Counted from the stretch's first letter, positions 2,323 through 51,049 are shown. The stretch is 64,000 nucleotides of DNA from Cyanophora paradoxa CCMP329 (GCA_004431415.1 QPMI01000500.1:6294-70293), one strand, 5' to 3'. Notes: generated from the letters alone by a model not told the origin. Numbers and translations: made by a program.

Positions 2323-2365
2323 GGCTTTTACTATATGGATTTATAAAATTCCTGATAAGTAAAAG

Positions 2366-4841: not shown

Positions 4842-4870
4842 TTTAATATATAAATATAGATAAAAGAAGA
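4842..4870. promoter_or_regulatory. 29-bp AT-rich spacer, putative bidirectional promoter between the two penton genes
   Basis: TTTTAATATATAAATATAGATAAAAGAAGA-like spacer between divergent ATGs, identical in B (38972-39000). Confidence 0.55.
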
Positions 4871-5877: not shown

Positions 5878-5930
5878 ATTAAGGATCATTGGTAGATTTT
5901 TTATGTTGCAGTATAATAAAAGAGAATATA

Positions 5931-7298: not shown

Positions 7299-7357
7299 AC
7301 CATTTTCAGTCTCCCTGCATTATTTTTATCTGTCTTTATTTAGGAAGATCTACAACA

Positions 7358-8140: not shown

Positions 8141-8168
8141 AATTATCTCTCATTCTAATAAAGATACA

Positions 8169-8903
8169 ATGCCTCCCAAACGAAAAATAGGGATCCCAGC
8201 TGGGGCTGTTGGCTATTCAGGTGGTGGAAACAATGGATCTATTAACACTGAACCAATGAAATTCAATGGTATGAACGAAATCAAACCCTCACAACCCCAA
8301 GAAGACCCCCTAAATGCTGCCTATGAGGAATCAGTCGATGACAAAGCCCCACAAAGTTCAACTGCTGACCAACTCAACATTTCACCAGAAGCCTCAAAAA
8401 TGAAAGCTGTTGCTGAGGGTGCCAGGCGAATTATTGGTGCTGCTGATGATAAAGGTTTAGGCTTGCAAGATCTGTCATTGGCTCGCAAAGGTGAAGGTCT
8501 AAGTAAAGAATCAGACAAGGTTATTCAGTCTATGGCTGGTGAAGTCACATACAAGACTGCTCCCACTCAAAATATTCATCGAATTCCCAAGGCTCAATGG
8601 GATGAGATGACTGCTAAACTCAAAGATCTGGAAGCCAAATCCAGTGCTTTGGAGCAGTATGTTACTGAGAAGAAAGAGAGAGCCAAGCTAAAGGAGATGC
8701 TTCGAAAGGAAGTTTATAAAATGGGAATCACTGGTGTCCCAGATAAACAGTTTATTGCTAAGAAAGAGAACCAAATCGATGAGCAGGCAGTAGATGAAAT
8801 GAAAACAAAGACCCAAAAGGGAACCATTGAACCTGGTGCCACCAAAGCTGAAGTAGAAAAGGGAGTAGCCCCAGCAGTATATAAAAGACGAGTTTGGCTT
8901 TAA
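8169..8903 (+). CDS. Hypothetical protein (possible virion core protein; N-terminal PPKRK NLS-like)
   Basis: 244-aa ORF conserved in B (42284-43005). Confidence 0.65.
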   Translation: MPPKRKIGIPAGAVGYSGGGNNGSINTEPMKFNGMNEIKPSQPQEDPLNAAYEESVDDKAPQSSTADQLNISPEASKMKAVAEGARRIIGAADDKGLGLQDLSLARKGEGLSKESDKVIQSMAGEVTYKTAPTQNIHRIPKAQWDEMTAKLKDLEAKSSALEQYVTEKKERAKLKEMLRKEVYKMGITGVPDKQFIAKKENQIDEQAVDEMKTKTQKGTIEPGATKAEVEKGVAPAVYKRRVWL

Positions 8904-8925
8904 TTATCTCTGTTTTATTAGAGAT

Positions 8926-9198
8926 ATGGACATAATACGAAAGTTCTTCGAGATGTTCAGTCTGCATGTGGTGAGCAATTGCCACAGTGGATGTTGTGAC
9001 ACAACAGTGGAGTTTGAGATGTCAGATAATGAGGATAATGCCTCAGAAGCAAGAGAGAGAAGGAGGTCTACAGTTTCTGTGGAGTCAATGCCAGCAGACC
9101 CCACAGAGTATACATATGAGCAACAGGAGTATCCAAGGAGAAGTTCTCTGCCAGCAGAAAACGTTTTCTCTGGGAATATAAATGGAGGACACTATTAG
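8926..9198 (+). CDS. Hypothetical small protein (CHSGCC motif)
   Basis: Packed in tandem; conserved in B at ~43027-43290. Confidence 0.5.
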   Translation: MDIIRKFFEMFSLHVVSNCHSGCCDTTVEFEMSDNEDNASEARERRRSTVSVESMPADPTEYTYEQQEYPRRSSLPAENVFSGNINGGHY

Positions 9199-9427
9199 TT
9201 TAATCGAGTTTACCAGTGATGAACCTGTTACTGAGGGTTCTATAAGACACATTCTAGCAATGCAGAAACGATATAGAGACGACCCAGCATATAGAGAGTA
9301 TAAGAAGCAACAAGCCCTGGCATCCTATTATCGCAGAAAAGCCCAAAAAGAGGAGCAGAGACCCAGAGGAAGACCGATTAAATATTATTTGCCAACTGAA
9401 AGTAGCAATGGACCCCCAGGTCTATAA
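9182..9427 (+). CDS. Small basic protein with AT-hook-like motif
   Basis: RPRGRPIK; YRDDPAYREYKKQQALASYYRRK motif shared with 9580-9906. Confidence 0.6.
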   Translation: MEDTISLIEFTSDEPVTEGSIRHILAMQKRYRDDPAYREYKKQQALASYYRRKAQKEEQRPRGRPIKYYLPTESSNGPPGL

Positions 9428-9611
9428 GATAATCGAGAAAAAGCGGTCTCAGTATGCAACTGAGGCAGCTATAAAAGTTTACAGACAGGAACTGGTGTTC
9501 GCAACAAAAAATGACTTAAGGAAAAAGTACATAGGTTGTATTGAGGAAAAATTATTTTCGTATCTACTATTAAAGAGAAATGCCGAATATCCGCAAGATA
9601 CTCACAGATGA
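9408..9611 (+). CDS. Hypothetical protein containing the left breakpoint of the A/B cassette swap
   Basis: First ~23 codons shared with B (43495-43565), then unrelated. Confidence 0.45.
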   Translation: MDPQVYKIIEKKRSQYATEAAIKVYRQELVFATKNDLRKKYIGCIEEKLFSYLLLKRNAEYPQDTHR

Positions 9612-9906
9612 TGAAAAAGCAGAAAAGCTGAGACTGAAAAGGGAGCAAGATGCCCAAAGAAAACGCGAAGCCTATCATAAAAAGAAGGAGGAACGATTAT
9701 CCCAAGGAGCCGCTACAGTTCACACACCAGAAGAACTCAAAAAGATTGCCCTCAGACACCAGAGGAAATACAGGGAAAATGAAGAATATCGCGAACAGAA
9801 AAAGGCAAAAGCGCTGGAATATTACCACAAGAAGAAAGATGAACAACCCAAGACACCCAAAGAGCATAAACCGGTTGGAAGACCTCGGAAATATATCGAA
9901 GAATAA
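9580..9906 (+). CDS. Small basic protein with AT-hook
   Basis: KPVGRPRKY; YRENEEYREQKKAKALEYYHKK. Confidence 0.62.
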   Translation: MPNIRKILTDDEKAEKLRLKREQDAQRKREAYHKKKEERLSQGAATVHTPEELKKIALRHQRKYRENEEYREQKKAKALEYYHKKKDEQPKTPKEHKPVGRPRKYIEE

Positions 9907-10015
9907 ATTCTCGATCAAAACAAATCTTGTAGAAATTGATTTGATCGGAGGCAAAAAAATGACAGCTTTCTTCCCTCTTTTTTAAAACTGTACCTATATA
10001 TCGAGACAGTATCCC

Positions 10016-10064
10016 GACCCAAAACTACTTAAGGACTTGGCAAATAATAGGATATATATAAAAG
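10016..10064 (+). promoter_or_regulatory. Putative promoter: GACCCAAAACTACTTAA ... TATATATAAAAG
   Basis: Same motif upstream of the B helicase (~46376-46418, minus) and 47696; variants upstream of 13386, 13514 and 46824. Confidence 0.6.
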
Positions 10065-10124
10065 ACAATTCCTCCTTCCGAAATTATTTTCTTCGTTAAA
10101 GGTAGAAGTCCCCCAAAATCGAAA

Positions 10125-12719
10125 ATGAACAAAATCGAGAAATTCGCCACCCCTGTTGAAAATGCCACATTCCTTAGTACTCTCATTGGTGATCGCAACA
10201 AGGTCACCCATGTATTTGATTCTGCCGAAGATGCCCTTGAAGCCATTGATAATAGCAAGGTTAAGACCTGGGCTGAATGCATTCAGCCTGAACAAGTCAC
10301 CAGAGTTTACCTGGACCTGGATAAATTCGCTGATTTGAAGGAGAACATTGCTGAAAACTATGCTGAGGCGGAAGCTGTTGTAAGAGAGATGAGAGATAAG
10401 CTATGGAAGCGATCTGGGACCACTTCGATTAACGATATTGCTGTTGCAGTTCGCCATAGAAGGGTTTATTTAATCAAGGAGGATGTCACCAAGTTCAAGA
10501 TCTCAGCCCACTTTATCATTAAATCGCTTGCATGCAAACATGAAGATATCCCCAAGCTTTTCAAAGCAATGGGTTTGGTGAAAAATGAGGATTATGACAG
10601 TGGAGTTTACAGCTCCACACAGAACCTTATCTGCCTCAATTGCTGCAAAGGTGAGACTCTGGATGCTCAAAATAAATCGAAAAAAGATGTTGATAAAAAC
10701 GTTTGCTTTAAGAAATTCGTTGACTGTGACAAAGTGTTAATGCGAAATGAGGACTTCTTTGTATCTTACTTCTCAGCTACTACTAAACTTGTGGATGAAT
10801 CGAATATTTCTGCATTCGCAAATTATAGCCCTGAGCCAAAACCAGTTAAAAAGGAGCCGAAAAGTGATAAAGTGAAGACTGAGAAGGTAGAAGCTGAAAA
10901 AGACACTGAACCCGAAAATCCTGTTACTTTCGAGCTGCTACAAAGTGTTATAATGGGTCTGAATGGTGAGAGAGCTAATGAGTATAAAACTTGGATTGAT
11001 GTAGGACTGGTCATCATCAATGTTGGGGAAGACAACAAGTTCACCCCTAAAATGCAAGCTGAACTCTTCCACCAATTCTCAGAACAGAGTGACAAGTATG
11101 ATTATGATGAATGCCAGGAGAAGTTTACACAACTTCGCAGAAGCAAGAAGAAGGCTGAGCCTGGCAAAGTGTTGACCTTCAAATCCTTGGTTTATTGGTT
11201 GAGCAAAGATAACAATGAGCTTTTCAAGGAACTCTTCCCCAAAAAGTATGCATTCCTACCAGAGGACACAGATGAAATCGATTACAAGACTGCAAGTATC
11301 CCTCCTTTGGCTGAACATTACAATGTGCATAAGAGGTATTTCAATGCTCGAATGCATCATGTTGAAAATGTTGGTTGTGTGATGCTCTGGGATGAACAAC
11401 TACTTTGCTGGATGCCCAAAGATATTGGGAAGCTCTCTACAAAGCATTTCCCCCACTTGATGCATAAGGTGATTGTGAATGAGGGGACAGATAATGAGAA
11501 AGAGAAATGGGAGCAATCATTTAGGAAATGGATTGTGGATCCAACAGCCACAAGATCAACTTACATGGATTTCCTCCCACCTCCTGCTACTCTCAGTGCC
11601 AAATGCAAGTCTGTATTTAATCTCTATCCAGGAATGAAGGTTGACCATCAGCAATTCGAAAATGCTCCAGAGGATGTAACTGCTGAGATGATTAAGCCTT
11701 TCCTAGATCACTTGTTCTTAATGTCTGGTGAGGATCAAAATACTTACGAATATCTATTGAAATGGTTTGCCCACATGCTGCAAAAGCCTGGGGAACTCAA
11801 TGGAGTATCCATAATCTTCATTGGTGAACAGGGTACTGGTAAGAATGTGTTGGTTGATACTTTTCAAAAGAAGATACTTGGAGATGCCCTGAGTTATGCA
11901 ACTGGTAAGCCAAAAGAGGATCTGTTTGGTCGATTTGCCCACAATAGAGAGGATAAGATCTTGATTGTTGTCAATGAAGCCTCAGGCAAGGACACATTCG
12001 AAAATAATGATATGCTTAAGGATCTCATAACTTCTGATAAGATTGTAATTGAACACAAAGGGATAGATTCATACACAAAAAGCAACTTTGCCAGGATTAT
12101 ATTCACCAGCAATAATAACATTCCAGTTAAAATTGAAGCTGGAGATAGGCGATTTGTGGTTGTTGAAGTTAGTAAGAAATTCGCAAAGGATAGGTCATAC
12201 TTCCTTCCACTTGTCAAATGGCTAAATGATCACTGCAATATTCGAAACATTGCCCACTATTTGAGAACCAAAGTTGACTGTGAGGATGTGAACTGGATTG
12301 CTGATAGACCCCTCACAAATAAATACTATTTAGCCCAACAGGTATGCGCCCCAATCATTCTTATGTTCACTAAGTGGCTTGTGGATCGAGGCTTAATTTC
12401 CGAGAATAAATGCAAGTCTGGTAGCCTTGTGGAAACCTGGAAGTGGTTCCAGGAGTTCATTACCAGCAACAAATATAAAAACGATTATAATAGTCGCAGA
12501 TATTATACTGAAATGAGAAGTGTTACATATATTCAAGTGAAAACTACAAATGGCAAACAATACTATCATTTCCTATTCCCACAAGTATTTGAGGAATTCA
12601 GAAAGATGAAACTTGTAGATGATGAGACTATTGAGGAGGAAGCTAATCCAAGGATGAAGCAAGACCTACCTGCTGCTGATCCTGATGCATCAGATTATGA
12701 TTCTGATGTTGAAGTTTAG
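10125..12719 (+). CDS. AEP primase + PriCT-2 + SF3 helicase (type A)
   Basis: RVYLDLD and KISAHFII (AEP), EYKTWIDVG...FSEQSDKYD (PriCT-2), GEQGTGKN, IVVNEA, IIFTSNN, DRRFVV. Confidence 0.92.
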   Translation: MNKIEKFATPVENATFLSTLIGDRNKVTHVFDSAEDALEAIDNSKVKTWAECIQPEQVTRVYLDLDKFADLKENIAENYAEAEAVVREMRDKLWKRSGTTSINDIAVAVRHRRVYLIKEDVTKFKISAHFIIKSLACKHEDIPKLFKAMGLVKNEDYDSGVYSSTQNLICLNCCKGETLDAQNKSKKDVDKNVCFKKFVDCDKVLMRNEDFFVSYFSATTKLVDESNISAFANYSPEPKPVKKEPKSDKVKTEKVEAEKDTEPENPVTFELLQSVIMGLNGERANEYKTWIDVGLVIINVGEDNKFTPKMQAELFHQFSEQSDKYDYDECQEKFTQLRRSKKKAEPGKVLTFKSLVYWLSKDNNELFKELFPKKYAFLPEDTDEIDYKTASIPPLAEHYNVHKRYFNARMHHVENVGCVMLWDEQLLCWMPKDIGKLSTKHFPHLMHKVIVNEGTDNEKEKWEQSFRKWIVDPTATRSTYMDFLPPPATLSAKCKSVFNLYPGMKVDHQQFENAPEDVTAEMIKPFLDHLFLMSGEDQNTYEYLLKWFAHMLQKPGELNGVSIIFIGEQGTGKNVLVDTFQKKILGDALSYATGKPKEDLFGRFAHNREDKILIVVNEASGKDTFENNDMLKDLITSDKIVIEHKGIDSYTKSNFARIIFTSNNNIPVKIEAGDRRFVVVEVSKKFAKDRSYFLPLVKWLNDHCNIRNIAHYLRTKVDCEDVNWIADRPLTNKYYLAQQVCAPIILMFTKWLVDRGLISENKCKSGSLVETWKWFQEFITSNKYKNDYNSRRYYTEMRSVTYIQVKTTNGKQYYHFLFPQVFEEFRKMKLVDDETIEEEANPRMKQDLPAADPDASDYDSDVEV

Positions 12720-12727
12720 GTTTATTC

Positions 12728-12911
12728 AAAAGTGGACTCATAGTTGACTCAAATTTATCATAAAAGACCCAAACAGTCTTTTATTTATGGTTTATTTATC
12801 GATTAGGTTGACTAAGTGGGGAGAGTTGACTCATTTTTTCACAGATTCTTAAAGAGGACTCTGCCCTAAAAAGAAATAAAAAGTGCCTCAACTCCACCCA
12901 CTAAGTCAACT
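12728..12911. repeat. Origin/iteron-like motif 1 (GTTGACT), directly downstream of the type-A helicase
   Basis: AAAGTGGACTCA.AGTTGACTCA, then GGTTGACTAAGTGGG..GAGTTGACTCA 78 bp later, then inverted TCAACT/AGTCAAC. Same motif and spacing in the TIR at 19473/19551. Confidence 0.75.
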
Positions 12912-13386
12912 TAACACTTAGATCACTTCTACATACTGGACATTTGAATTGATCTTTTGATGGCAGCTTTGCTGTGCAGTCACCACATACTTGACTATTA
13001 CACTTGAAACAACTCCATGTCCCAGGGGGTTCATCAGTTTCCAAACAAACAACACATGTTTTATCCTCTTCCCTCTCAAAAGATATGATGACATCATGTA
13101 AGAACGATTTCAGTATACTCTCGGAAATCGATTGAGGAACTAAGTAACCACTGTCTTTAAAGAGAATAAAGCAAAGTTGCTTTCTCTCAGAAGAATATCC
13201 ATTCACCACATTCAAGTTATGAAACATTTTGACATGCTTTTCAGTATAAGAAATCACATAAATTTTGTTTTCATTCAATGAGCGATCTAAGAGATCTCTG
13301 GTTGCATCAGTAAACATACTTGTGGCATCCTCAACAGGTATTGAGGTCAAAGATTTCAGAGTTTCTATGATATCTTGGGAGTTCAT
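12901..13386 (-). CDS. RING-finger protein (putative E3 ubiquitin ligase)
   Basis: CVVC...CFKC...CGDC...CPVCR. Confidence 0.8.
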   Translation of the reverse strand: MNSQDIIETLKSLTSIPVEDATSMFTDATRDLLDRSLNENKIYVISYTEKHVKMFHNLNVVNGYSSERKQLCFILFKDSGYLVPQSISESILKSFLHDVIISFEREEDKTCVVCLETDEPPGTWSCFKCNSQVCGDCTAKLPSKDQFKCPVCRSDLSVKLT

Positions 13387-13513
13387 CGATCCTTTCTACT
13401 AGTAGAAAAGAAAATAATTTTTCCTATATATCCTTTTTTCAAATTCGCTTTAAGCCATTTCTAAAAAATGATTTAAGAGATAGAAAAATATATTTATATG
13501 TTAGAAGTAAGAC

Positions 13514-13864
13514 ATGGCTGGAACAGATCATGATTCTGGATCGATCTATATGATTGAGAGTCAGGAAATGAACAAAATCTACATAGGGAGAACCTCACAA
13601 AAAGTACAAATCCGATGGAAACAACACAAATCAGGTCAAATGCCATCCACAGCAGACCTATGCAAGGCTGCTGATGTGAAGTTTTCAGTCTTGTATTCAA
13701 GTAAGAAGGGTGGGCATGAAGACCTTATGAACAGAGAAGCATACTACATGTATCTGTTTGAACCTTGGATAGTCAATTTACAAAAACCGAAATCGAGATT
13801 TAGGATAAATAGGTTTTTGCGATTCCATTCAGAGGAAGCCAATGGATCCATTAAAACATTTTAA
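13514..13864 (+). CDS. GIY-YIG endonuclease
   Basis: SIYMIES...IYIGRT...IRWKQH...RE. Confidence 0.85.
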   Translation: MAGTDHDSGSIYMIESQEMNKIYIGRTSQKVQIRWKQHKSGQMPSTADLCKAADVKFSVLYSSKKGGHEDLMNREAYYMYLFEPWIVNLQKPKSRFRINRFLRFHSEEANGSIKTF

Positions 13865-13925
13865 AAATGCGTTTAGAACATCCTAAAATAAAATATCCCC
13901 TTAGAATAGGAACAAGTTAGGGATA

Positions 13926-16900
13926 ATGCCCCGAATTACCAACAAACTCATAAGGGAGAAGAAATGGGAACTCATGGGATTGCTGGGAACACTTTATGCA
14001 GCCCATGAAATAACAGAGGCTGAATATGACCGGGAAATAGATTTAATTGCAAAGGGTAGACCCACTTTAGCCAGATTAACCAGAAAAGCAAATAACCTAT
14101 ATGATAAAATTGAAACCTTGGATGAACTGGATAGGCTTAGGCAAATAGAACCAGAGGCAGAAGATGGAACAGCCATGAATGAATTATATCGCTGGCTCAC
14201 TTACAGAGCCAGAAGGGAAGTTGTTGTAGATGTGATTGAATTCCTGGACAGAATTGCTACATCCCTTCCAGATCGATTAAAGCAGGGTTTAGATCAATTC
14301 AGGGCAATCAAGGTTCGCTTGTCTTTTATCTGCAAGTTCGTAAAAGTAAGCAATCCGCAGGTTTGGATATCGAAATACATTTACAGCGATTATTTTGTAC
14401 TAACCAGATCGAGAAATATTCGAACTGAGCTGAATAAAGCAGCCCAAATATGTCAGGAGCAGATGAATGTGGTTGATAGCTATCGCTTAGAAAGAATTGA
14501 AATACTCAGAGTGGCTATTATGAGTTATGCTCCAACAGGTGGATGCTTTCTACAAACCCCAGAGTGGATTGCTAGGAAGAGAGCCACAGTAAATATTCGA
14601 AATATTGATGATTCCTGCTTCGAAAATGCAATTTTGGCATATATTCACAGAAAAGCGATAAACTCCCATAAGAGGAATGAGCTTTCACAGTATCGCAAAT
14701 GGAAATACTCAGCAATCGCTTATAATCCGCTGGCTCTCAATTTCGACAATATCCCATTCCCTGTTGCCTGTGATGCTGAAATAATTGATAAATTCGAATC
14801 TCAAAATGCAGGCATCAGCATAAACATATTTGGAATGGATCGAGATGTTATATATCCCCTACATCAATCCAGCAACCCAGGCAGAAAGCAAAAGATTAAT
14901 CTCATGCTCATTCATGATGATGAAGGGAATGGTCATTATATTACAATCATGTCCCTTTCAAGATTATTGAAAGTAAACCATGAAACATACAATGATCAGA
15001 AGTTACACTACTGTGACACATGCTTATCTCGATTCAGGTCTGAGGCTAAACTCACTGCTCATGTGGACTCAAATAGATGCATTGATTGGAGACTCTCAAA
15101 GGGAATCACACCAAAACCTGAGACCACCATAGAGTTTGGACTGAAAAACCTCAGGAAAACTGTTTGGCTTCCTGTTGTGGTTTACTGCAAGATTGAACAT
15201 AGAAGCATCCCCATTGATGCATCAAAATCTAAGAGGGAAGTCTCAGCAGTCAACCTGAGAGTAGTCACTGGGGCAGATGTTCAGGAGTTTCGATTTGAGG
15301 GTCAGGATCCAATGGGAGGTCTCTTTGAATGCTTGGAGTCCAAAGCAAGAGAACTAATCGATTTCCTGTTTACCAACATTCCTATGAATGAACTCACAGA
15401 TGAGCAGAAAGCAATTTACAGAGCTACCAAACACTGTTACCTTTGCAGTGAGAGGTTCACTAAGGAGAACTTCAAATGCAGGGATCATGATCACCACACA
15501 GGTCATTATATTGCTCCTGCATGCAGAAACTGCAATCTCCATAGGAGAATCTCAAAGCAAACCAAAGTTGCAGTAGTTGTTGACCAAATGGATGACTGTG
15601 GGACATTCATTTTCAGAAAAATAGCAGGCATGGGTGATAAAAATCGAATCGAAATCCTTTCGAAAAACTTTGATCAATACCTTTCATTGCAATGGGGTCT
15701 TTACAAGTTCATTGATGCAAGCAATTTCATGGATTTTGGAGCTGCTGATGTAGATGAGTTAATGAACAAATTCCAAGCCTTCAGAAGGCTTTCACACTCA
15801 GTATATGGACTTGACCCAGTTCATTATGTATCTGCACCTGGGTTATCTTGGGATGCTATGCTTAGGACCACCGAGGCAAAAATAGAGCTTATAAGTGATG
15901 TAGAGCAATACGAATTTGTTGAGAGGGGAATCAGGGGTGGCTTTGCAACAATGCCTTGTAGGTATGCTGAGGCTGATGGTGAGAACTCCCACATTATGCT
16001 GTTTGATGCTAACAACTTGTATGGCTACTGTTTGAGTCAGCCAATTCCAGTTGGTGATTTTAGATGGGAGACCGAATTCAACCCACAAGATAACAGATCC
16101 AGTTTCCTGGAAGTTGATCTGGAATACCCAATAAGGCTATATCTAGACCACAGTGATTTCCCCCTAATTATTAACAAGAAAATAGTAGAATATGCGGAAT
16201 TATCACAATATCAAAAGAGCCTGTTGGATCTTTCAGGAGAAGAGCTTGATAAGACCCCTAAGCTAACTGCAACCTTTGGTTCTGTGGCAAACTATGTGAT
16301 TTCTGAGCCTCTTCTGCAATATCTGTTGGACAAAGGTGTGAAATTAAAGAAAATTCACAGGGTCCTCTCATTTACTGTGGCTCCTGTAATGAAACCCTAC
16401 ATTGAGCTGAACACTGATATGAGAAGGAAAGCAGTGAATAAATTCGAGGCTGATTTCTATAAACTCATGAATAACTCAATCTATGGGAAATGCATTGAAT
16501 CATGTAGAGGTAGATCTGTGGTTAAGATTGCAAACAGTGAGAAACTGTTTATGAAATATGCAGCTTCCCCATTGGTGAAATCAACAAGTCCCATAAACGA
16601 AAAAGCAGTTGCCTTTGAGTTTTACACAAAGCATGTGAAACTAGATAAGCCTGTTGCAATTGGGGCTTATGTTTTGGATGCAGCCAAACTGCATAATTAC
16701 CAGTTCTTCTATGATACTGTAAGGTCCCAATGGACAAAAGCAAAGTTACTATTCCATGATACTGACTCCTTCTGTCTATATATTGAATCTAAGACCTTAC
16801 AAAAAGATATAGAGAATATATCTTATGCCTTGGACCTAGGGGGATCTAACAGAATGACCCCAGGTAAATACAAAAATGAAATGCCTGGCTCTGCAATATT

Positions 16901-17171
16901 GGAGTATGTAGGTCTGAGAGCAAAAGTTTACAGTTTCAGAACTGCTGAGATTGAGAGGAGTAAGCTCTCTGGGACTTCCACTGAGGAACTCCAATTTAAT
17001 GATTTTAAGCAGTGTTTATTTGCAGGTATCAGCAAGACTGTGACTGCAAAGCAGAAGAGAAGGGCAGATCACACAATAATAGATACCGTGAGTAGAAGGG
17101 TTGCCCTAAACTGCTTTGATGCAAAGAGATACATCTTACCAGATGGTATTAATTCTGTTCCTTTTAATTAA
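13926..17171 (+). CDS. polB: Protein-primed family B DNA polymerase (terminal protein/vOTU-like N-terminus, EndoVII-like insert)
   Basis: DANNLYG, KLMNNSIYGK, HDTDS, GLRAKVYS. CYLC...RDHDHHTG...ACRNCN insert. DDSCF/GHY motifs. Confidence 0.96.
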   Translation: MPRITNKLIREKKWELMGLLGTLYAAHEITEAEYDREIDLIAKGRPTLARLTRKANNLYDKIETLDELDRLRQIEPEAEDGTAMNELYRWLTYRARREVVVDVIEFLDRIATSLPDRLKQGLDQFRAIKVRLSFICKFVKVSNPQVWISKYIYSDYFVLTRSRNIRTELNKAAQICQEQMNVVDSYRLERIEILRVAIMSYAPTGGCFLQTPEWIARKRATVNIRNIDDSCFENAILAYIHRKAINSHKRNELSQYRKWKYSAIAYNPLALNFDNIPFPVACDAEIIDKFESQNAGISINIFGMDRDVIYPLHQSSNPGRKQKINLMLIHDDEGNGHYITIMSLSRLLKVNHETYNDQKLHYCDTCLSRFRSEAKLTAHVDSNRCIDWRLSKGITPKPETTIEFGLKNLRKTVWLPVVVYCKIEHRSIPIDASKSKREVSAVNLRVVTGADVQEFRFEGQDPMGGLFECLESKARELIDFLFTNIPMNELTDEQKAIYRATKHCYLCSERFTKENFKCRDHDHHTGHYIAPACRNCNLHRRISKQTKVAVVVDQMDDCGTFIFRKIAGMGDKNRIEILSKNFDQYLSLQWGLYKFIDASNFMDFGAADVDELMNKFQAFRRLSHSVYGLDPVHYVSAPGLSWDAMLRTTEAKIELISDVEQYEFVERGIRGGFATMPCRYAEADGENSHIMLFDANNLYGYCLSQPIPVGDFRWETEFNPQDNRSSFLEVDLEYPIRLYLDHSDFPLIINKKIVEYAELSQYQKSLLDLSGEELDKTPKLTATFGSVANYVISEPLLQYLLDKGVKLKKIHRVLSFTVAPVMKPYIELNTDMRRKAVNKFEADFYKLMNNSIYGKCIESCRGRSVVKIANSEKLFMKYAASPLVKSTSPINEKAVAFEFYTKHVKLDKPVAIGAYVLDAAKLHNYQFFYDTVRSQWTKAKLLFHDTDSFCLYIESKTLQKDIENISYALDLGGSNRMTPGKYKNEMPGSAILEYVGLRAKVYSFRTAEIERSKLSGTSTEELQFNDFKQCLFAGISKTVTAKQKRRADHTIIDTVSRRVALNCFDAKRYILPDGINSVPFN

Positions 17172-17174
17172 GAG

Positions 17175-18560
17175 ATGCCAGCAACTGGAAGAATAGTTAG
17201 GAGAACCACTGAGCAACTACAAGGTAACCTACTGCCTATCACAGTTCCAAAGGAGGAAAAAGGGGAATCTCGAATTGTCAAAAAATCAGAGATGAAAGAG
17301 CTTGTCCCTGTGGAGATCCCAGTTGCTATTGCAGTGAAAGAAACTAGCAAGATTGCCAAGAGATTCTATGATGTGAGGACTGGTTACAAAGGGCTTCAAG
17401 CTATGAGGGCTGAGTTACCAGATGAATCCTATAAGCAGTTGCAAGAGTTCTATAAAAAACAAGAGGTAGTTCAGATCAATGCACCTGCTATATCTAGGAA
17501 GAGAGATCCCATGGTTCCAATAAGGCAACCCCTTGATACCTATGTGATTGATTTGCTCTTTTTCCCAGCTTATAAGAAACAAAACAATGGCTATGATACC
17601 TTTATGACTGCTATGGAATCAACACTGAGAACTGGATATATCATACCTATAAGAGATAAATCAGCTCTCACTACATTAGCTGCATTTAAGCAGCTTGAAA
17701 TGAGAGTGGCAAGACCCATAGTAAAAGTTCAATCAGATGCTGGGAGTGAGTTCCAAAATCGAATATTCCAGGAGTATTTATCTAGTAAATTCATAGAACA
17801 CCAAGTGAGTGGAACTGCAGACCATAGAAGCCAAGGTCGAATTGAAGCCTTTAACAAGCAGATTAAGAGACTGATCACAAACTACTGCATAGCTAATAAC
17901 ACAGCTAGATTCTTTGATGTGTTAGGTGATATTGAGTATAATTACAATAATACAGTTCACTCAGCTACTAAGATGAAGCCAGGCGAAACTACAGAGGAGC
18001 ATTATAGGTATATAGTGGGATTAGAAGATGAAAGATTCAAGAAATCAATAGCTTACCTTGATACCATGCAGCCAGGCATGTTTGTTAGAGTGAAAGTTGA
18101 GAAAAATGCCTTTGCTAAACAGGGTAACAATTGGTCTAGGATGGTTTACACTGTTGATAGTAGGGAAGGCTTTAAGTTTAAGCTAAGGAGTCCCACTGGT
18201 GAGATCATAGAAAACAGGTTTGCTTTCCATGAGCTGTTACCTGTGAATTCAGTTGAGTATCTGGAAACACCTACAGTGGATGCATTAGAGCAAGCCAAAG
18301 AGGAAGCCAAGGTTGATGCTGCTATAAGGAGAGAAGGCATAGAAGCTGCTAATGAAGTCCCAGATAAGCCTTTGATAGAGGCTAGAAAGGAGAAGACTGG
18401 CAAGGTTAATAGGGAACTCAAAAAGCTCACTATAGCAGGGACACAGAAACTTTCTGAGGTTAATAGCCAGAGATGGTATAATGACTTTCAGACTACTAAG
18501 GAGTCATATACAGCCCCTAAACCTCAGAGAACACTAAGAGAAAGGACCAAAACTAGCTAG
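17175..18560 (+). CDS. int: Retroviral-type (rve) DDE integrase
   Basis: YVIDLLF, VQSDAGSEF, QGRIEAFNK, YNNTVHSATKMKP. Confidence 0.95.
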   Translation: MPATGRIVRRTTEQLQGNLLPITVPKEEKGESRIVKKSEMKELVPVEIPVAIAVKETSKIAKRFYDVRTGYKGLQAMRAELPDESYKQLQEFYKKQEVVQINAPAISRKRDPMVPIRQPLDTYVIDLLFFPAYKKQNNGYDTFMTAMESTLRTGYIIPIRDKSALTTLAAFKQLEMRVARPIVKVQSDAGSEFQNRIFQEYLSSKFIEHQVSGTADHRSQGRIEAFNKQIKRLITNYCIANNTARFFDVLGDIEYNYNNTVHSATKMKPGETTEEHYRYIVGLEDERFKKSIAYLDTMQPGMFVRVKVEKNAFAKQGNNWSRMVYTVDSREGFKFKLRSPTGEIIENRFAFHELLPVNSVEYLETPTVDALEQAKEEAKVDAAIRREGIEAANEVPDKPLIEARKEKTGKVNRELKKLTIAGTQKLSEVNSQRWYNDFQTTKESYTAPKPQRTLRERTKTS

Positions 18561-18785
18561 TTTGCTAGGCAAAAACTCGTTTTTTCCAAATATATGTATG
18601 ACTGATATACATATATGCACATGATATACACATAGTCTTGTAGATCTTATCAAGCGCTTCACAGCGATATGCAGAACGTTGCGTTTTGATGATCTGGTGA
18701 TGAGATATAACAGTTTGAAGATGCAAAAGTCACTTGCCATAGTAGACTTGGTGAAACACTAGCCCAGGAGTCGACTTGGAAGTAA

Positions 18786-18904
18786 GTCGCTTTTGGCTCA
18801 GCGGTTAAGGCGCTTGGATTTCCGAGTCGCAATTCAAATCCGCTCGGGAACCTTTACTTCGTTCGCCGTGAAACTTGAAAAGTAAAAAAAAAACGCGGTT
18901 TTTT
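18786..18904 (+). ncRNA. tRNA-like / Pol III-type small RNA or SINE-like remnant
   Basis: Box-A-like TGGCTCAGCGGTTAAGGCG, box-B-like ATTCAAATCC inside a hairpin, no anticodon arm, then A10 and T6. Confidence 0.4.
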
Positions 18905-19456
18905 CTAGATTAATGCTGTACCCGTCTGGAAAATCATTATTCACGTTTGCTACGATATCTCAGCACCAACTTATCAAATCGATGCGCTTTAAACGTCATA
19001 AAATCGAGCATTTCAAGGCGGTCTGAGCGCTTATCAGCCATATCGACATTTCGATAACCCTGACTCGAAATCGCGGTGAAAGCGATTTTGAATTTTATTT
19101 TAAATTCGATTAAAATGCATTAAACGTGAGTTTTTAATATAGATCACCAGGAAGTTATCAAATCGATGCACTGACGATCGAATATAATCACATATATAAT
19201 ACATAACAATAACTTGCAATCACATATACGAATCTCGATGTGTATACATCGCTATTACGATTTAAGCGAGTTTTGAAATTCAAAATAATTCGATTAAATT
19301 CGATTATAACTCAAAAATCGCGAGTTTTAACCATATACTTATCAATTCGATCAACGTATGATATCTTATATTCCGCTATATTGTATTGCTTCGATAAACG
19401 TGATCACATATATGAAAACATCAATCTAACATTGCATTTAGTAAGCATCTCCCCTA

Positions 19457-20565
19457 GATTCCCCCTATAATTAAAGTGGACTCAAGGTTGACTCATATTA
19501 ATCGTAAAAGTAGTAATAGTATATGGATTTTGTTACGAATTCAATGCAAGGGTTGACTAAGTGGGTTGAGTTGACTCAAATTTCACAGGAAATAACAATG
19601 AATCAGAGTATAAAATGCATTTTTTGAATCAACTACACCAACTAACACTGAGAAAGTAGTTTATATCATATAGTATTACCATATATGGTTTGTCAGGCAC
19701 TATAATATAGTTGTCAGGCCCTAATATAGTATGTCAGGCATTGTCAGGCACCTTTTTAGAAAACTTTTATAAAATTGAAATTTCATTGTTAATCCAAACA
19801 ATGACTTAGCCAAAATAAAATACTTTATGAAAATCGATAGATTTAATGCCTGACAAATAAATGCTGCCTGAAAGATTTAACACCAACTAACACTGAGATT
19901 TTCACAATATATGAGGTCCTTACTGAATATGGTTTGTGTGACAGGTGTGACAGGTTTATCCCGTGGATTTTAAAAATCAATTTCTCACTAGGACTTTCCT
20001 TGGGATTGACCTGTCACACCTGTCACACCTGTCACACCCAAAATCCTAAGGGTCCCCCCTTAGACTCAACAAAACAATGATAAAATCATATAAGTTTCAT
20101 GTATAATTACGATTGAATTCAATAAGAGATCGATTTGTTAATATAAACAAATGAATCATTTATGGATCTTAATCGAGTTAAGCGATATATTTCCGATTAA
20201 ATGAATTAAATTTAATTAAATTTAATCGAGAAAGTACATGAATATAATATCGATTAAATCAATTAACAAACAGACCAATCACACATAGTAAAATGCGGAG
20301 TTTTAACCAGAGGCAAGATCTAATTGAGATTCAGTTATATTATTCGGAAATATATACAGATTATCGATTAACTCAGTAAGACTAATCGGAAAATAAGAGA
20401 AATTTACGATAAAATATCGAAAAGAATACAAAATAATCGAAATAAATGAATATTCGATAAGATATACACAGATTATCGATTGATTGAAATAGAATATACG
20501 AGATATATCAACAAAATCAATTAAGATTAAGCCGAGGGTTAAAACTCCGCATTTTACTATGTGTG
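19457..20565. repeat. Right TIR of element A
   Basis: Reverse complement of 26503-27386 and direct homolog of 53394-54444. Confidence 0.92.
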
Positions 20566-24830: not shown

Positions 24831-24831
24831 A

Positions 24832-26502: not shown

Positions 26503-27386
26503 CACACATAGTAAAATGCGGAGTTTTAACCCTCGGCTTATCTTAATTGATTTTGTTGATATATCTCGTATATTCTATTTCAATCAATCGATAATCTGTG
26601 TATATCTTATCGAATATTCATTTATTTCGATTATTTTGTATTCTTTTCGATATTTTATCGTAAATTTCTCTTATTTTCCGATTAGTCTTACTGAGTTAAT
26701 CGATAATCTGTATATATTTCCGAATAATATAACTGAATCTCAATTAGATCTTGCCTCTGGTTAAAACTCCGCATTTTACTATGTGTGATTGGTCTGTTTG
26801 TTAATTGATTTAATCGATATTATATTCATGTACTTTCTCGATTAAATTTAATTAAATTTAATTCATTTAATCGGAAATATATCGCTAAACTCGATTAAGA
26901 TCCATAAATGATTCATTTGTTAAATAAAACAAATCGATCTCTTATTGAATCCAATCGTAATTATACATGAAACTTATATGTTTTTATCATGTTTTAATGA
27001 TTCTAAGGGGGGACCCTTAGGATTTTTGAAATAATTGGGTGTGACAGGTGTGACAGGTGTGACAGGTCCATCCCAAGGAAAGTCCTAGTGAGAAATTGAT
27101 TTTGAAAATCCACGGGATAGACCTGTCACACCTGTCACACAAACCATATTCAGTAAGGACCTCATATATTGGTAAAATCTCAGTGTTAGTTGGTGTAGTT
27201 GATTCAAAAAATGCATTTATACTCTGATTCATTGTTATTTCCTGTGAAATTTGAGTCAACTCAACCCACTTAGTCAACCCTTGCATTGAATTCGTAACAA
27301 AATCCATATACTTTTACTACTTTTACGATTAATATGAGTCAACCTTGAGTCCACTTAAATATAAATATAATATAATAGGGGGAATC
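26503..27386. repeat. Left TIR of element B
   Basis: Inverted relative to 53394-54444 and 19457-20565. Confidence 0.92.
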
Positions 27387-27589
27387 AAGGGGAATGTTGA
27401 GTTTTACTGTAATGAAATCGAATAGTATTCGAAATCTTACATTTGTAGGTTTAGGATGCATTCATATTTTGGCTACATCATACAGTAGAATTCTATTGTA
27501 AACAATGTCCGGAATCCGGAAAATAATCATTGTAGAAAGCTATTGTAATAAAAAAGATAAATTACCCTGTTTATCATTATAGAAACCCA

Positions 27590-27988
27590 TCAAAACGGGA
27601 ATCTATCATGTTTATGTCTCTCAGTCTTCTCAAATGTTAAGAAATTCATTGTTTTATCGATCTCATCTGCAACTGCTTGTGTTTTATGCTGAGCTTCTTT
27701 ACCACAACTGAATATATCAATTGCTAACATGCCTTCATTGGAATAACAATGAGCTGTGCAATGGCTTTCATCTAATAGCAGAACCAATGCAAAACCAGGA
27801 GGTGATAGTTTGCCATCAAATATCTCACAATGCTTATGAACAATCCTAATACCTTGTCTCAATACTGCTTGTTCAAGGGTTCCCATAATCCAATTACCTA
27901 GGAAGCTAACATGCTCATAACCTGTTGCTATAGCTGATTTAGCCTTGTAATCAAGCATAACATGAAAGCCTCTGTATTTAGTCTCCAT
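27590..27988 (-). CDS. speD: S-adenosylmethionine decarboxylase-family pyruvoyl proenzyme
   Basis: HVMLD, GFALVLLLDESHCTAHCY (E|SH self-cleavage site), AIDIFSCG; 132 aa, bacterial/archaeal size. Confidence 0.87.
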   Translation of the reverse strand: METKYRGFHVMLDYKAKSAIATGYEHVSFLGNWIMGTLEQAVLRQGIRIVHKHCEIFDGKLSPPGFALVLLLDESHCTAHCYSNEGMLAIDIFSCGKEAQHKTQAVADEIDKTMNFLTFEKTERHKHDRFPF

Positions 27989-28011
27989 TAAGAATACCTT
28001 AGAAAAATTAA

Positions 28012-28284
28012 CTAGTCAAACCTAATGCAAATATCCCTATACTCTACTCTGATTGATGAAGTAGCTCTTTTCCTGTGTGCTTGACTCTTTCTTTTGTTAC
28101 AGTCCCTGCAACCTGATCCCTTCACATGATTAAAGGGATAGGTAAGGATCACCTTATTACACTGCAAACATCTCACAGATACTTTCTCTTGAGCTTTGAT
28201 GTAATGTGTCTCACTGTAATCGAATTTATCTTTACCATGAACTGTCATAGCAGCATCAATAAACTTTTTTGTTTTACTATCCAT
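28012..28284 (-). CDS. Zn-ribbon protein (DUF723-like, homing-nuclease-associated repeat)
   Basis: FI..A..VHG.KFDYS...Y....KV.V.C..C......P.NH..G.GC..C. Confidence 0.7.
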   Translation of the reverse strand: MDSKTKKFIDAAMTVHGKDKFDYSETHYIKAQEKVSVRCLQCNKVILTYPFNHVKGSGCRDCNKRKSQAHRKRATSSIRVEYRDICIRFD

Positions 28285-28306
28285 ACTCTATATATAATCA
28301 ACATTC

Positions 28307-29142
28307 TTATGGAGCAGTATCCTGCCCAAAAATGGGGAAATATCGATTTGTCCCATAGTACTCAGCATAGGTATTCTGCCTTGCAATAAAATCGGTTCTC
28401 TCTGCATATAATACACATTTGTAGATACCAAACTTGGTGGCTCTCACTAAGAACTGATAATCTTCCAAACCGAAATTGACTCCATGATAAGCAATACCAA
28501 AATTATCATATGGGGTGATCACAACAGCAAAATTAGGAGTTCCACCCTCTACTTGGCAAACAGCATAAACATCAGGTGGAATATCAACAACTACCTTATA
28601 GTGGTCACCAATCTCAACAAGAGAGTCTACTACTGCTGTTTGTTCATTCACAACAATTGGGAATATCTTGATTATATAGGGGGCATTCATGCTGGGACAT
28701 AGGTTCGAATTCTTGTATTGGGATCAATGGGATTGGGTTGATCATTCACAAATAGAGGCGCTCCAACAGCCCCACCAACCCTAAGACCATCACCAATATA
28801 TGCTCCCCCCGATTTGCAGTTAATAGCTCCAGACCTAGATTCAAAAGAATAAGTAGACAGAGGATCTCCATAGCTATCTGGGTCTCCATAATGAGCAGAA
28901 AAGTTTGCATTTGTGACAAGTAGCTTAGTTGTCTTAACTATTCCATTATTTTTATCACATCTGAGTTCCTGCAATCTCAGTTTGTGGGTGGAACCAAAAG
29001 TATTCATGGTAGGTTGGACCTCTGTGGATTGGAGACCTTCCACATCATCAAAAGTAGCATGCTGTAAAACATGGTTTGCTGGGGCAGCTAATGATAGCTG
29101 TGGTGTTATAATTCGCTCTATTGGTGTGGGTGCCTCTGCCAT
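28307..29142 (-). CDS. Putative structural/fibre-associated protein, paralog 2 (split at 28687-28690)
   Basis: Both halves align with 29166-30010 (ELR.DKN.G.VKTT.LLVTNANF; ..G.Y...L...RTD). Confidence 0.6.
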
Positions 29143-29165
29143 TTTACATTAAAGGGATATATCTT

Positions 29166-30010
29166 TTATGGGGTTGGGTCATCAATAATATCTGGCTCTT
29201 GGTAAAACCCTGTAACTGAAAGAGTATCAGGAGTTACACCTCTAAGAGCTGATACAGCGGCTATATCTGTTCTCAAACCGATAAGAGTTATAGTATATAA
29301 CCCAATATCTGTAACAAACAAGTCAAAGGTGAAATTATTATTATAAACACAGTAGCCATAACCGAAATGATTATATCCCTGAACATTGAAATAGTATTTA
29401 TGACCTACTTGATTGTTGTTGGCTCTACAAAGGGAAAGCATTGCAGATGGAATCGCAAGACCTCTCAGTACTCTTTTGGTTCCTTCAATTAATTCCGAGT
29501 TTTCAAGAGTAACAGTATATCCAATGTAAAATTGAATTAATGGCTGCTGTGCAACAGGAGTATATAATCGAATTCGTTGGGGTCTTCCACATTTTGCTCT
29601 AGAGTATCTGGGACATCATTATACGAAATGGAGGATGAGAGTTGACCTGACACTCTGCAACCTCCCCCAATAAATGCTCCTCCTGATCTCACAGTAACAG
29701 CAGCAGTATTCTTGTCGAAATCTAGGGCTTTCAGGGCAACACTGTAAGCATCAGGACCTCCATTTGTAGGCTGGAAGAAGTTAGCATTGGTGACAAGAAG
29801 TCGAGTTGTTTTAACCACACCAGAATTCTTATCAGCTCTCAGCTCTTTTACTCGAATAATCGAATTTTTATCAAAGGAGTTACCATTGGAATTGGGTCTC
29901 TCTGTGGATTCTAAACCACGAACCTCATCATTTACTTCATGCTGGCGAAAATGCATTGCAGGGGATCCAAGGGAATATATAGGCAGTTGAACTCGATTAT
30001 ATTCACCCAT
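29166..30010 (-). CDS. Putative structural/fibre-associated protein, paralog 1 (frameshift ~29580)
   Basis: Tandem paralog of 28307-29142. Confidence 0.6.
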
Positions 30011-30059
30011 TGCTTCTTTTACTAAGAAGGAAAGAAAAATAATGCGAAATATGCATTTA

Positions 30060-33000
30060 TTATGGGATTCCATATGCTGTCCAATGGATTGTGCAAGTAA
30101 TACTTCGACTTTCAGATAGAGTAGGGGATGCTATGAATGTCACATAAATTGTTGTATAGGTAGATGTGGAGTTTGAGATTCCAATTCTAAAATCTACATC
30201 CCAGGGTTTGTTGCAGGAGTTCCTTCAAGTGTGGCAGTTACAACAGGTGTCTTAGTGTAAAAAGCAGGATCCCAATTCAAAACCTGTGCATGCTGTGTTC
30301 TCTGACCTGCGCTTATAACACCACTTGTAGCCTGATATTTGCCTGATTAAACCGCCTTTCCATATCATGCCATGAGGGGACTTGGCTAATTGTGTTGGTG
30401 GTTCCTGCATTCATTGCATAAAATGCCCTTGCATAAGCATTTCCTCTGCAGAGCAAGGTTTTATCATAGAAGTTTGCTGAATTGTGGAAGAACCAAGTTT
30501 CCTCATTTGTAGGCGATGCAGGGGCTACTATTTGACCTGATCCTACATACATAGTATTATTTGCAGTGATTGTATTGGCTGTGAATGGGTCTAAACTTGG
30601 AGATCTGTGATTTCTGATTTAGTATGAGTATGGGCGAAATCTGTAATATTTGCCTTTGTGTGAGTATGGCAAAGTCGGTGATATCTGATTTAGTGTGAGA
30701 GTGAGGTCCGACAGTTGTAGAAGCTGTTGGTTTCCATAAATGTTATCCCAATGCAAGAAGCCGCTATGTGAGGATACAGTGGGTTCTTGCTCCAACCTAC
30801 AAGACCCACAAGATAAATCCTTCCTATTCGCCCTTGAACACCCACTTTACTCAGCCCTTCACAATTCACTCCGACATATTGCCTATACTCTACACTTGGG
30901 TCACTACCAGGAGAATAAGCATTTACTCTCGAAAGTGTATAAGAATTCGTTGATGGATAAACTCCCACAACATCGAAGTATCTGCTATTATATTGACACA
31001 CATAGAAGATATAGCATGTTTTCATTCCCGCAGGGACAGTCCATAACATCTTGTAGCCACTACAATCTTCATCACCAGAAGCCCATGTGTTTGCTCCTGA
31101 GTAAGGAGATATAAATGTGAAAAATCTCCAATCGCCTGTGCGATCTGTTGAAAGACCATTTGTGGCATCAAAGTTGATGGGGATGTGTATGTTGGTTTAT
31201 TTATCAGATCATCGTAATTTCCTGTCGTTGCAACAGTTGCAAGATTAGGTCTATCTGTGATATTTGACCAAGCATGAGTATGGTTGCAGGAGGAATGTTA
31301 AAGGTTTATCTGTGATATTGTTCCATGCATGACTGTGAGTTTGAAGTGCAACACCCAATTCGGTTTCATCTATATAATTTTTGCTTTGCAGGTAATCGTC
31401 TGTGACCACACCTGAAAGGGTCTCGTTGTGCAGGTTTTTAGCCGCCATTCTCTGATTGGCTTCAATAGCCCCACCTGATAGCGTTTTAATCCAAGCGATC
31501 TCAGCTTTACTGTAATTATCAGTTGGTTGCCCAACAAGTGGAATATAATTGAGTTTATCCCGAGTGAAAACTATCTTAGGTCTTGATCCATCCAAGCTGC
31601 TTACATCTGTCACATTCACATGGACAGCTGCTGAGAAGTCTTGATAACCCGCAGGATTGGAGGGAACACCGAACCCATCCTTTGGAATATCGTTTTTGTA
31701 ATAGCTTGTCACATAGATATTCGGGAAAGTGTCACCCGGGTTAACATACGCCATATCTTGCACTCGGAATTGAGGCAAGCTTCGGACAAATAGAGGTCCT
31801 GTCATTGCACTGCCCGCATCAGCCCCTTTGAGGTGAACATAATGCTCATTCAAAATAGTTCTTTCCGCAATATTGCAGGATTTATAAAGGGAAACCCCAT
31901 ATTCACAGGTTCGACCTTTGAGAATTCAGGTTGGTTATTGATCTCATCCCATGTATGCTCATGGGTTGTAGGTGGAATATTGAAGGTCTATCTGTGATAT
32001 TCGACCAAGCATGAGTGTGGTTTTGTATCCATCCCTGCACCACATTGGATGTTGTGTAGTTTGGAATTATAGCGTTTGAACCTACTATTAAATTTTTAAT
32101 GTGGACATAGTCAGAAGAAATTCGCAGATTTTCGGGATAATAAAGCGATTGCGTTTTTGGGAAGCCGTAATAATCCTGAATATAGTATCTCACCCTTTGC
32201 TTCTCTTCAAACGTTAATGCTCTATTGAAAATGATGTATTCGGCTATATCACCTATGAAATAGTTAACACCCATCCTACTGAAAGTTGAAGGTGGAAGGT
32301 AATTTGTTCCTGTAAAGGTTCCTACATCTTGTCCTCTGATTCCAAAGGTTATGCTGTTTGAAGTTATGGTGGTGTCCCAATAATTAGCTGAATGGAAGCA
32401 TAATTGGTGTTCACTCGTGGGGCTGTGTAACCCACTCCATTACTTGTGAATGAATACAAACCAAATGATAATGACGATCCATACCCAAACTCTATTTTAT
32501 GGTTCCATCAGGAGAACCAAAATCTAAATGAACTGTTTGCCAATTTGGTGCAGAGTAGTGACTACCTACATAGAACAGTGTCATGCCCTCTGACCAATCA
32601 ACGGATACATTATAGTTAATGAATGCCGAGGCAGTATATCCACCTGACTTTCTTACTACTTTTTGGTTGTTGAATAAAGGATTTGCTACGACAGCACCAC
32701 TGCTCCCGAAAAATGGGAATGTTATCCCTGAAATAAACGGAACAGCTGATGTTGCCCTATTGGGGATGAACTGTGACTGAGGATTTGTATTAACAGGAAG
32801 CCCATCCATTCTCATTGTTAAAAGGCATTTCGGTGTGGTTTTGGCAGGGTCAGTGTTGGAAGTAATGGGGTAATAGGGTGGATCATAGTAGACATCGATT
32901 TCTGTATTTCCGTCTCCTATTTTCAGCTTTCCCTTCACATTCAGGTTACATGTAACTGTAAGATTGCTACCAATCCAAGCGGATCCTGTGTTGCTACTGT

Positions 33001-36461: not shown

Positions 36462-36504
36462 GGCTTTTACTATATGGATTTATAAAATTCCTGATAAGTA
36501 AAAG

Positions 36505-38971: not shown

Positions 38972-39000
38972 TTTAATATATAAATATAGATAAAAGAAGA

Positions 39001-40011: not shown

Positions 40012-40064
40012 ATTAAGGATCATTGGTAGATTTTTTATGTTGCAGTATAATAAAAGAGAATATA

Positions 40065-41429: not shown

Positions 41430-41488
41430 ACCATATTCAGTCTCCCTGCATTATTTTTATCTGTCTTTATTTAGGAAGATCTACAACA

Positions 41489-42255: not shown

Positions 42256-42283
42256 AATTATCTCTCATTCTAATAAAGATACA

Positions 42284-44000: not shown

Positions 44001-44039
44001 TATAAAAATAATATAAATCAATCATTAATCGTTTCGTTT

Positions 44040-46824: not shown

Positions 46825-46880
46825 TTTTCCTTTGTCTCTCTTAATATATATAGAGAATTCTTTAAATCATTTTTTGTTCT

Positions 46881-51046: not shown

Positions 51047-51049
51047 GAG

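Follow-up and report, generated by a model that had tools for sequence, protein, structure and literature searches.

A perfect 29-bp inverted repeat nested within the ends of Polinton-like elements in Cyanophora paradoxa: a candidate fold-back terminus

Introduction

What might an integrated virus gain from carrying its own terminus twice at the same end, the second time in inverted orientation? This question is raised by a 64-kb stretch of Cyanophora paradoxa CCMP329 DNA (hereafter the window), and it bears on the end replication, end repair and chromosome exit of Polintons, PLVs and integrated virophages. The current models of these processes, namely racket or panhandle structures and hairpin priming, have been drawn without sequence-level evidence. 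Self-complementary TIR extremities are already known from virophages and PLVs of protists, as set out in the available text of a recent preprint (10.64898/2026.07.28.741278). New here, within the literature searched, is a 29-bp terminus that recurs inverted 228 bp inside the same end, around a CpG-rich array, in an element with a pPolB.

The element presents a sharply defined candidate cis-element, consisting of the 29-bp terminus, its inverted copy and the CpG array, with pPolB, primase-helicase and integrase genes beside it. Because strains carrying tens to hundreds of copies of its family have been repeatedly sequenced, the hypothesis that the ends of the element fold back on themselves is directly testable. 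Should the arrangement prove to be only a layout of binding sites or a relic, it would add no more than a small structural detail to the record of a single PLV family.

The two elements and their genes

The window holds two direct copies, A and B, of a low-GC element (~0.40) embedded in GC-rich DNA, with flanks of 0.55-0.84 (Table 1). Judged from sequence, both are Polinton-like integrated viruses. Like Polintons/Mavericks and PLVs, as these are described in the available portions of two reports (PMC12220804; 10.64898/2026.07.28.741278), the element is a 28-kb low-GC island with TIRs of hundreds of bp, and carries a pPolB, an rve integrase, an A32-type ATPase and, here, a lipase. As is the case for Polintons and PLVs in protist genomes, it is multi-copy and its modules have been swapped between copies. 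It differs from them in its CACAC...GTGTG termini, in the absence of a target-site duplication at copy B, and in having its terminal 285 bp bounded by a perfect 29-bp inverted repeat of their own.

Copies A and B correspond over two blocks, 907-9495 of A with 35044-43582 of B (94.7%) and 13889-18762 of A with 47769-52633 of B (93.9%), between which 4.2-4.4 kb are unrelated. These unrelated segments, at 9496-13888 in A and 43583-47768 in B, are replication modules set within flanking sequence that is 94-95% identical. The module of A encodes an 864-aa primase-helicase on the + strand, in addition to a RING-finger ORF, and that of B carries PrimPol and D5_N/DUF5906 ORFs on the - strand.

Relatives of the pPolB were found at four IMG/VR loci, with 32-35% identity. 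Upstream of its polymerase domain lies an Endonuclease VII/HNH-like Cys/His stretch (15399-15539, residues 492-538), for which the Endonuclease_7 match (E value of 2.5e-4 in copy A and 7e-5 in the copy B ORF at 49055-49630) falls just under the Pfam cut-off. The integrase of copy B matches the PFV integrase at 1.3e-7, while that of copy A has 5879 homologues, with D126, D188 and E224 invariant in the integrase alignment. The A32-like ATPase was also recognised in copy B (Pox_A32, 8.2e-8). A Pfam scan of 47 ORFs gave no capsid or protease match at E ≤ 0.01, and PDB sequence searches with two large ORFs gave no match; the Atlas neighbours of the ORF at 39001-40011 are unnamed viral clusters.

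Several cargo-like genes were observed, encoding an S-adenosylmethionine decarboxylase-like protein (27590-27988, - strand), a patatin-like lipase (2476-2997, + strand) and an F5/8 type C (discoidin) protein (3119-3919, + strand). Furthermore, a 66-bp tandem repeat is present in three copies in an ORF region of both elements (1093-1394 and 35231-35532).

No target-site duplication of 5-6 bp was detected at copy B, the left flank of which ends in ...GATCGCTCTT and the right flank of which starts with ACAAGGCCCG. At TIR positions 521-700, the left TIR of copy B is closer to the right TIR of copy A than to its own right TIR, and copy B may therefore be a recombinant.

Table 1. Coordinates of the elements, their termini and selected genes, counted from the first nucleotide of the window.
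Feature	Position	Strand	Basis or remark
Element copy A	1..20565	+	Left part beyond the window
Element copy B	26503..54444 (27.9 kb)	+	pPolB and integrase each split into several ORFs
Terminal unit, copy A right end	20280..20565 (286 bp)		Inner arm 20280-20308 (+), outer arm 20537-20565 (-)
Terminal unit, copy B left end	26503..26787 (285 bp)		Outer arm 26503-26531 (+), inner arm 26759-26787 (-)
Terminal unit, copy B right end	54160..54444 (285 bp)		Inner arm 54160-54188 (+), outer arm 54416-54444 (-)
Right TIR, copy A	19470..20565		Inverted-repeat search and alignment
Left TIR, copy B	26503..27360		Inverted-repeat search and alignment (26502-27360 vs 53444-54445, 91-100% in blocks)
Right TIR, copy B	53444..54444		Longer than left TIR
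CpG-rich T-CG-A-type motif array in AT-rich DNA	26567..26957		Fills the loop of the unit and runs ~170 bp past the inner arm
Second hairpin-forming module inside TIR	19936..20028		Inverted arrays of a 9-nt repeat, CAGGTGTGA-like; fold and alignment columns 563-665
A32-like packaging ATPase, copy A	7358..8140	+	Pox_A32 3.4e-12
Primase-helicase, copy A (PriCT_2 + DUF5906)	10125..12719	+	Pfam
pPolB, copy A, 1081 aa	13926..17171	+	DNA_pol_B_2 2.7e-13, above Pfam cut-off
rve integrase, copy A, 461 aa	17175..18560	+	Pfam rve 2.5e-4, 21.7 bits vs cut-off 32.6 (below)

Anatomy and boundaries of the terminal unit

The original prediction, made from the sequence, described each TIR end as a block of ~285 bp with perfect 29-bp inverted termini of its own, and this description was borne out at all three visible ends. 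A search of the window with the 29-mer CACACATAGTAAAATGCGGAGTTTTAACC, allowing up to three mismatches, returned six matches, every one of them without a mismatch, as compared to none in 100 dinucleotide-preserving shuffles and none expected by chance. The six sites constitute three convergent pairs and delimit units of 286, 285 and 285 bp (Table 1). The idea that this pattern represents chance similarity or an assembly artefact is barely credible in view of the shuffle control, of the presence of the structure three times in the window, and of independently assembled contigs from six public runs, which cover the unit and both junctions.

The predicted TIRs are likewise real, with TIRs of about 860-1100 bp flanking copy B. 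The unit forms the outermost part of the TIR at the three ends (about the outermost third in the case of the left TIR of copy B), always in the same orientation relative to the element, and its only ORF is a low-complexity one of 82 aa.

At each end, the inner arm is an exact inverted copy of the outer arm, located ~227-228 bp further inside. The arms are identical at 29 of 29 positions, while the next 20 positions yield 10 matches in an ungapped comparison; a gapped comparison gives an 82-86% match across 42-49 nt. The probability that all 10 mismatches among 49 positions would land in the inner 20 is 2e-5, and this confinement indicates that the limit of the inverted repeat is sharp at 29 bp. 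The edge of the outer arm is the point at which similarity between the copies stops at the three ends, and corresponds to the physical end of the element. The host flank of copy A begins at 20566, where GC content climbs to 0.72-0.84, and in the contigs of public runs the depth passes from multi-copy to single-copy at the outer boundary.

The terminus starts with 5'-CACACA, a (CA)3 dinucleotide reiteration, and the ends read CACAC...GTGTG at the three visible termini, just as had been predicted. The prediction contrasted these ends with the AG/AGT repeats of classical Polintons. The 29-mer additionally holds a 17-bp imperfect palindrome, TAAAA-N7-TTTTA.

Conservation, composition and predicted folding of the TIRs

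Identity between the TIRs extends 570-800 bp beyond the unit, and the right TIR of copy B exceeds the left in length because of internal duplications. Conservation between ends is higher in the unit than in the TIR next to it: 0-2 substitutions separate the ends within the 285-bp unit, as against 7-15 in the adjoining 232-235 bp of TIR (Fisher p of 1.4e-4, 2.6e-4 and 0.086 for the three pairs of ends). Furthermore, no variant with a share of at least 10% was found inside either arm across the multi-copy family in four runs. All copies are, however, 94-99% alike, so that conservation of the arms is inseparable from the effects of a recent spread or of homogenisation.

The loop between the arms is 72-77% A+T and yet CpG-rich. 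The outer 470 bp contain 19 CG dinucleotides where 7.9 would be expected from composition (Poisson p = 6e-4), with a preceding T in 15 of the 19 cases and a following A in 11, and ATCGA/TCGAT is enriched 6-fold over the interior of the element. The observed/expected CpG ratio reaches 2.12 within the unit and 2.84 over TIR positions 286-480, but is only 0.24 for the inner TIR and 0.34 across the 26-kb interior; the excess in the outer ~480 bp over the interior suggests that CG-containing motifs are being maintained. Spacings of 20-22 bp between CG motifs recur in the loop, although a test for periodicity was not significant (p = 0.17). As a stretch, the CpG-enriched outer ~480 bp (26503-26982, with the other two ends alike) resembles a maintained array of protein-binding or methylation-related sites.

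When the unit is folded as single-stranded DNA (26503-26787), the 29-bp stem is predicted to close a 227-nt loop at -47.3 kcal/mol. Shuffled sequences give a mean of -15.6 (z = -10.6), with none of 200 shuffles as good, and folding of the terminal 666 nt retains the stem.

A second hairpin-forming module, built from 9-nt repeats, was noted at 19936-20028, 27035-27130 and 53660-53910, and is duplicated in the right TIR of copy B, where the repeat unit is CAGGTGTCA instead of CAGGTGTGA. Just inside that same TIR lies a 9-bp tandem repeat (TGTAAGAAT-like; 52916-53033).

Several of these features would also fit a role of the inner arm in double-stranded form, where the integrase or a terminal-protein/polymerase complex would bind it as a second site. 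Each element would then possess four sites, two per end, on which an integration or initiation complex could assemble across a 228-bp DNA loop. Consistent with such a layout, the rve integrase gene adjoins the right TIR, the arm limits are sharp at 29 bp, TCGA-type motifs are repeated in the loop, and the 29-mer holds an imperfect palindrome of the sort often seen at sites for dimeric proteins; moreover, it is the whole unit, and not the arms alone, that is better conserved than the remaining TIR. A parallel is offered by Sleeping Beauty/Tc3-type IR/DR elements, the ~230-bp terminal repeats of which carry a ~30-bp protein-binding site at the outer and inner edge, and which hence share with our unit a ~30-bp site at both edges of each terminal block. 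Those sites are direct repeats served by a Tc1/mariner transposase, however, whereas the repeats described here are inverted and accompanied by an rve integrase. Indeed, the inner copies in the precedents of this kind (Sleeping Beauty IR/DR, Tn7 and Mu) are mostly direct, and no further full or partial copy of the 29-mer was found in the window at up to three mismatches. We consider this layout a somewhat unlikely explanation of the unit.

Population evidence from public sequencing runs

Part of the stretch is contained in 20 public runs, and Logan contigs from six of these were compared, using runs X1-X4 for positions 19800-21100 and runs X1, X2, X5 and X9 for positions 41500-54700. Depths are summed per-contig k-mer depths and not copy numbers, and are thus suited to orders of magnitude and to the detection of steps.

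The host flanks display a summed k-mer depth of 70-110. In every run covering the junctions, flank contigs reach 27 nt into the element, beginning at 20539 and 54418, from which it follows that both insertions and the outer boundary are real; the contig beginning at 54418, single-copy and 3615 bp long, is present in four of four runs. By comparison, the summed depth reaches ~7,000-55,000 in the TIR, ~3,000-31,000 in the pPolB-integrase region and ~500-10,000 in the PrimPol/D5 region of copy B. In rough figures, the family comprises tens to hundreds of copies, in which the polymerase-integrase-TIR part is common and other modules vary.

Two side observations concern these depths. The replication module of copy B is several-fold less deep than the pPolB-integrase part in the public runs. 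In addition, the summed depth of the element interior at 41500-52500 is ~3-5 times lower in X1 than in X2, X5 and X9, with similar TIR and flank depths, which could reflect either strains that differ in copy number or an artefact of contig depth.

The original prediction had also proposed that the unit might move as a MITE-like substrate of the integrase. Under the corresponding explanation, the unit derives from a mini non-autonomous derivative of an ancestral short-TIR element that was fixed at the viral ends in composite-transposon style, and is now either functionless or still movable alone by the integrase. Its structure is that of a MITE, with 285 bp, no convincing gene and outward-facing termini identical to the ends of the element. 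Furthermore, the outermost ~100-150 bp are ~2-3 times deeper than the remaining TIR, and a contig of 978-990 bp, at about half of single-copy depth, shares only 20465-20527 with the region compared, which indicates that the outer part occurs in at least one other context. Mobility of the unit as a whole was nevertheless not apparent. No depth step exists at its inner boundary in X1-X4, where the bins 20240-20283 and 20328-20371 have depths of 18055/15556, 17746/12236, 7158/2581 and 13749/13987, respectively, and the TIR is only ~1-3 times as deep as the integrase gene; this combination argues against a burst of solo units. The 29-mer search (up to three mismatches) likewise revealed no solo copy of the unit within the 64-kb window, identity of the TIRs continues well past the unit, and the unit is more, not less, conserved than its surroundings. 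An origin as a relic or MITE is hence unlikely.

A capacity of the unit to invert, also part of the original prediction, fared no better. If the ends were replicated as hairpin telomeres of the poxvirus/parvovirus type, or were subject to site-specific inversion, the segment between the arms would flip at each round, and inverted arms around a non-palindromic segment indeed have the geometry of a flip/flop terminus. Such a process should generate similar amounts of both forms, however, and a single orientation is present at three of three ends; the contigs of the six runs list no joint with a change of strand at 20308/20537 or 54188/54416, despite tens to hundreds of copies, and the 228-nt loop is not self-complementary. 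This explanation appears very improbable. Rare flipped or solo forms may nonetheless exist, because contigs drop rare variants.

A proposed fold-back terminus or origin module

Our preferred reading, which we hold tentatively and at a probability of roughly 0.4, is that the unit may serve protein-primed replication and the repair of ends, functioning as a fold-back telomere or origin module. The formation of a panhandle or fold-back at the unit is physically plausible, since the 29-bp stem dominates the predicted single-stranded fold, the element encodes a pPolB, intact in copy A, and its terminus is (CA)3. The reading also draws on the sharp 29-bp limit of the arms, the coincidence of the outer arm with the host boundary, the higher conservation of the unit relative to the neighbouring TIR, the lack of arm variants at a share of 10% or more, and the CpG excess of the outer ~480 bp. 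Terminal reiteration is a requirement of the sliding-back and jumping-back modes of protein priming, as in phi29 and in adenovirus, the latter with a reiterated 5' terminus. The (CA)3 start fits the reiteration used in these modes, and is thus consistent with the outer arm as a putative origin.

The outer arm would, in such a mechanism, combine an origin for protein-primed replication with a recognition sequence for the integrase. Whenever the end became single-stranded, be it as a displaced strand or in an opened integrated copy, its 3' terminal 29 nt could pair with the inner arm. This pairing would rebuild a blunt double-stranded terminus, the same as the genome end, without recourse to the other TIR 27 kb away, and pPolB together with a terminal protein could begin the complementary strand from the rebuilt duplex. 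The inner arm might additionally provide a template from which an eroded 3' end is refilled, and the TCGA-type array in the loop is a predicted binding region for a protein of replication or integration. For free genomes, the TIRs of ~0.9 kb could form a conventional panhandle, and a local fold-back would consequently be unnecessary.

A bolder version, which we regard as quite improbable, has the unit serve as a launch pad from which an integrated copy leaves the chromosome. Upon opening of the end, the 29-nt arms would form a stem whose base falls precisely where virus meets host; cleavage at this base by a structure-specific nuclease, for which the Endonuclease VII/HNH-like stretch of the pPolB itself is a possible candidate, would expose a blunt terminus bearing an origin for protein priming. 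If true, such a launch pad would answer the question as to how integrated viruses that encode a pPolB regain free ends, and would account for the presence of an exact terminus copy at each end separately.

Comparison with known systems

The closest described structures are those of virophages and PLVs in Halocafeteria seosinensis, whose self-complementary TIR extremities were proposed to act in hairpin priming or otherwise to support replication (10.64898/2026.07.28.741278, a July 2026 preprint, available text). As in those elements, the self-complementary sequence described here is located at the extreme end of the TIR, adjoining the host junction. According to the same text, the Halocafeteria palindromes are tight (~52 nt, with a gap limit of 10) and occur preferentially with non-pPolB replication genes. 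In contrast, the arms of our unit measure 29 bp and lie 228 bp apart around a loop with a motif array, and a pPolB and a primase-helicase are both present. No description of a nested terminal repeat with a wide loop was found through the literature searches or in the available portions of the papers cited here, including the PLV reports PMC12220804 and PMC11296320, although the TIR/TSD tables S3 and S4 of PMC12220804 could hold similar cases.

In mechanistic terms, the fold-back reading has its nearest counterpart in the 'Rabbit Ears' telomere of Streptomyces, a linear replicon capped by a terminal protein. As outlined in the available part of PMC5449611, the outermost 13 nt are paired with a palindrome further in, forming a 13-nt duplex within 84 nt of packed palindromes, with protein-binding sites in between; the fold-back templates the repair of truncated ends, with Tap/Tpg patching after internal initiation. 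The resemblance is one of mechanism only, given that the Streptomyces system is bacterial and has neither sequence nor protein homology to ours.

The panhandle is the standard model for displaced strands in protein-primed replication, for which direct evidence is lacking according to the available text of PMC11886824. Similar to the ITR panhandle of adenovirus and PRD1, the displaced strand is proposed here to restore a duplex origin by intramolecular pairing. The adenovirus/PRD1 panhandle involves the pairing of the two genome ends, however, while the partner in our unit is situated within the same end.

Relatives of the element family

Database searches show that the lineage is thinly sampled. 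A word-index search with the copy B integrase returned a single match, P0001, at 79% identity (76% to the integrase of copy A). In a full search with the copy A integrase, P0001 was the only close full-length match among the matches listed, the others being one 132-aa fragment at 56% and sequences at 37% or less. The 29-mer is absent from viral_contigs, as is a 21-mer of the terminus from metagenome_contigs, and a related-locus search with the integrase confirmed none of 21 candidates. An alignment of two integrase sequences found one locus in metagenome_contigs, at 35%.

Searching viral_contigs (IMG/VR) with the integrase alignment gave 23 loci, 16 of which span whole contigs, and just one of these 16 has recognisable TIRs. 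This locus (L009) is 12.3 kb in length, with TIRs of 277 bp and an integrase that is ~26% identical, and has no inverted copy of its own terminus within 900 bp. Conservation of the inner copy across family members, on which the original prediction had been staked, is therefore seen within the near-identical family of this genome and fails in the single distant relative with complete TIRs. As the sole fetched relative of that kind, L009 appears to count against the fold-back reading.

Sequences adjoining the elements

The DNA between copies A and B (~21400-26502) holds a fragment of a different virus-like element, whose A32 ATPase (24832-25536) shares only 32% identity with its copy A counterpart. 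The left end of copy B adjoins this fragment, and its right flank is unrelated. On that right side, 54183-57071 on the - strand is occupied by a 962-aa pol ORF, GC-rich and retrotransposon-like, the C-terminal part of which resembles an integrase. The right end of copy B lies inside this ORF or adjoins it, and the ORF is single-copy at k = 31 in four runs.
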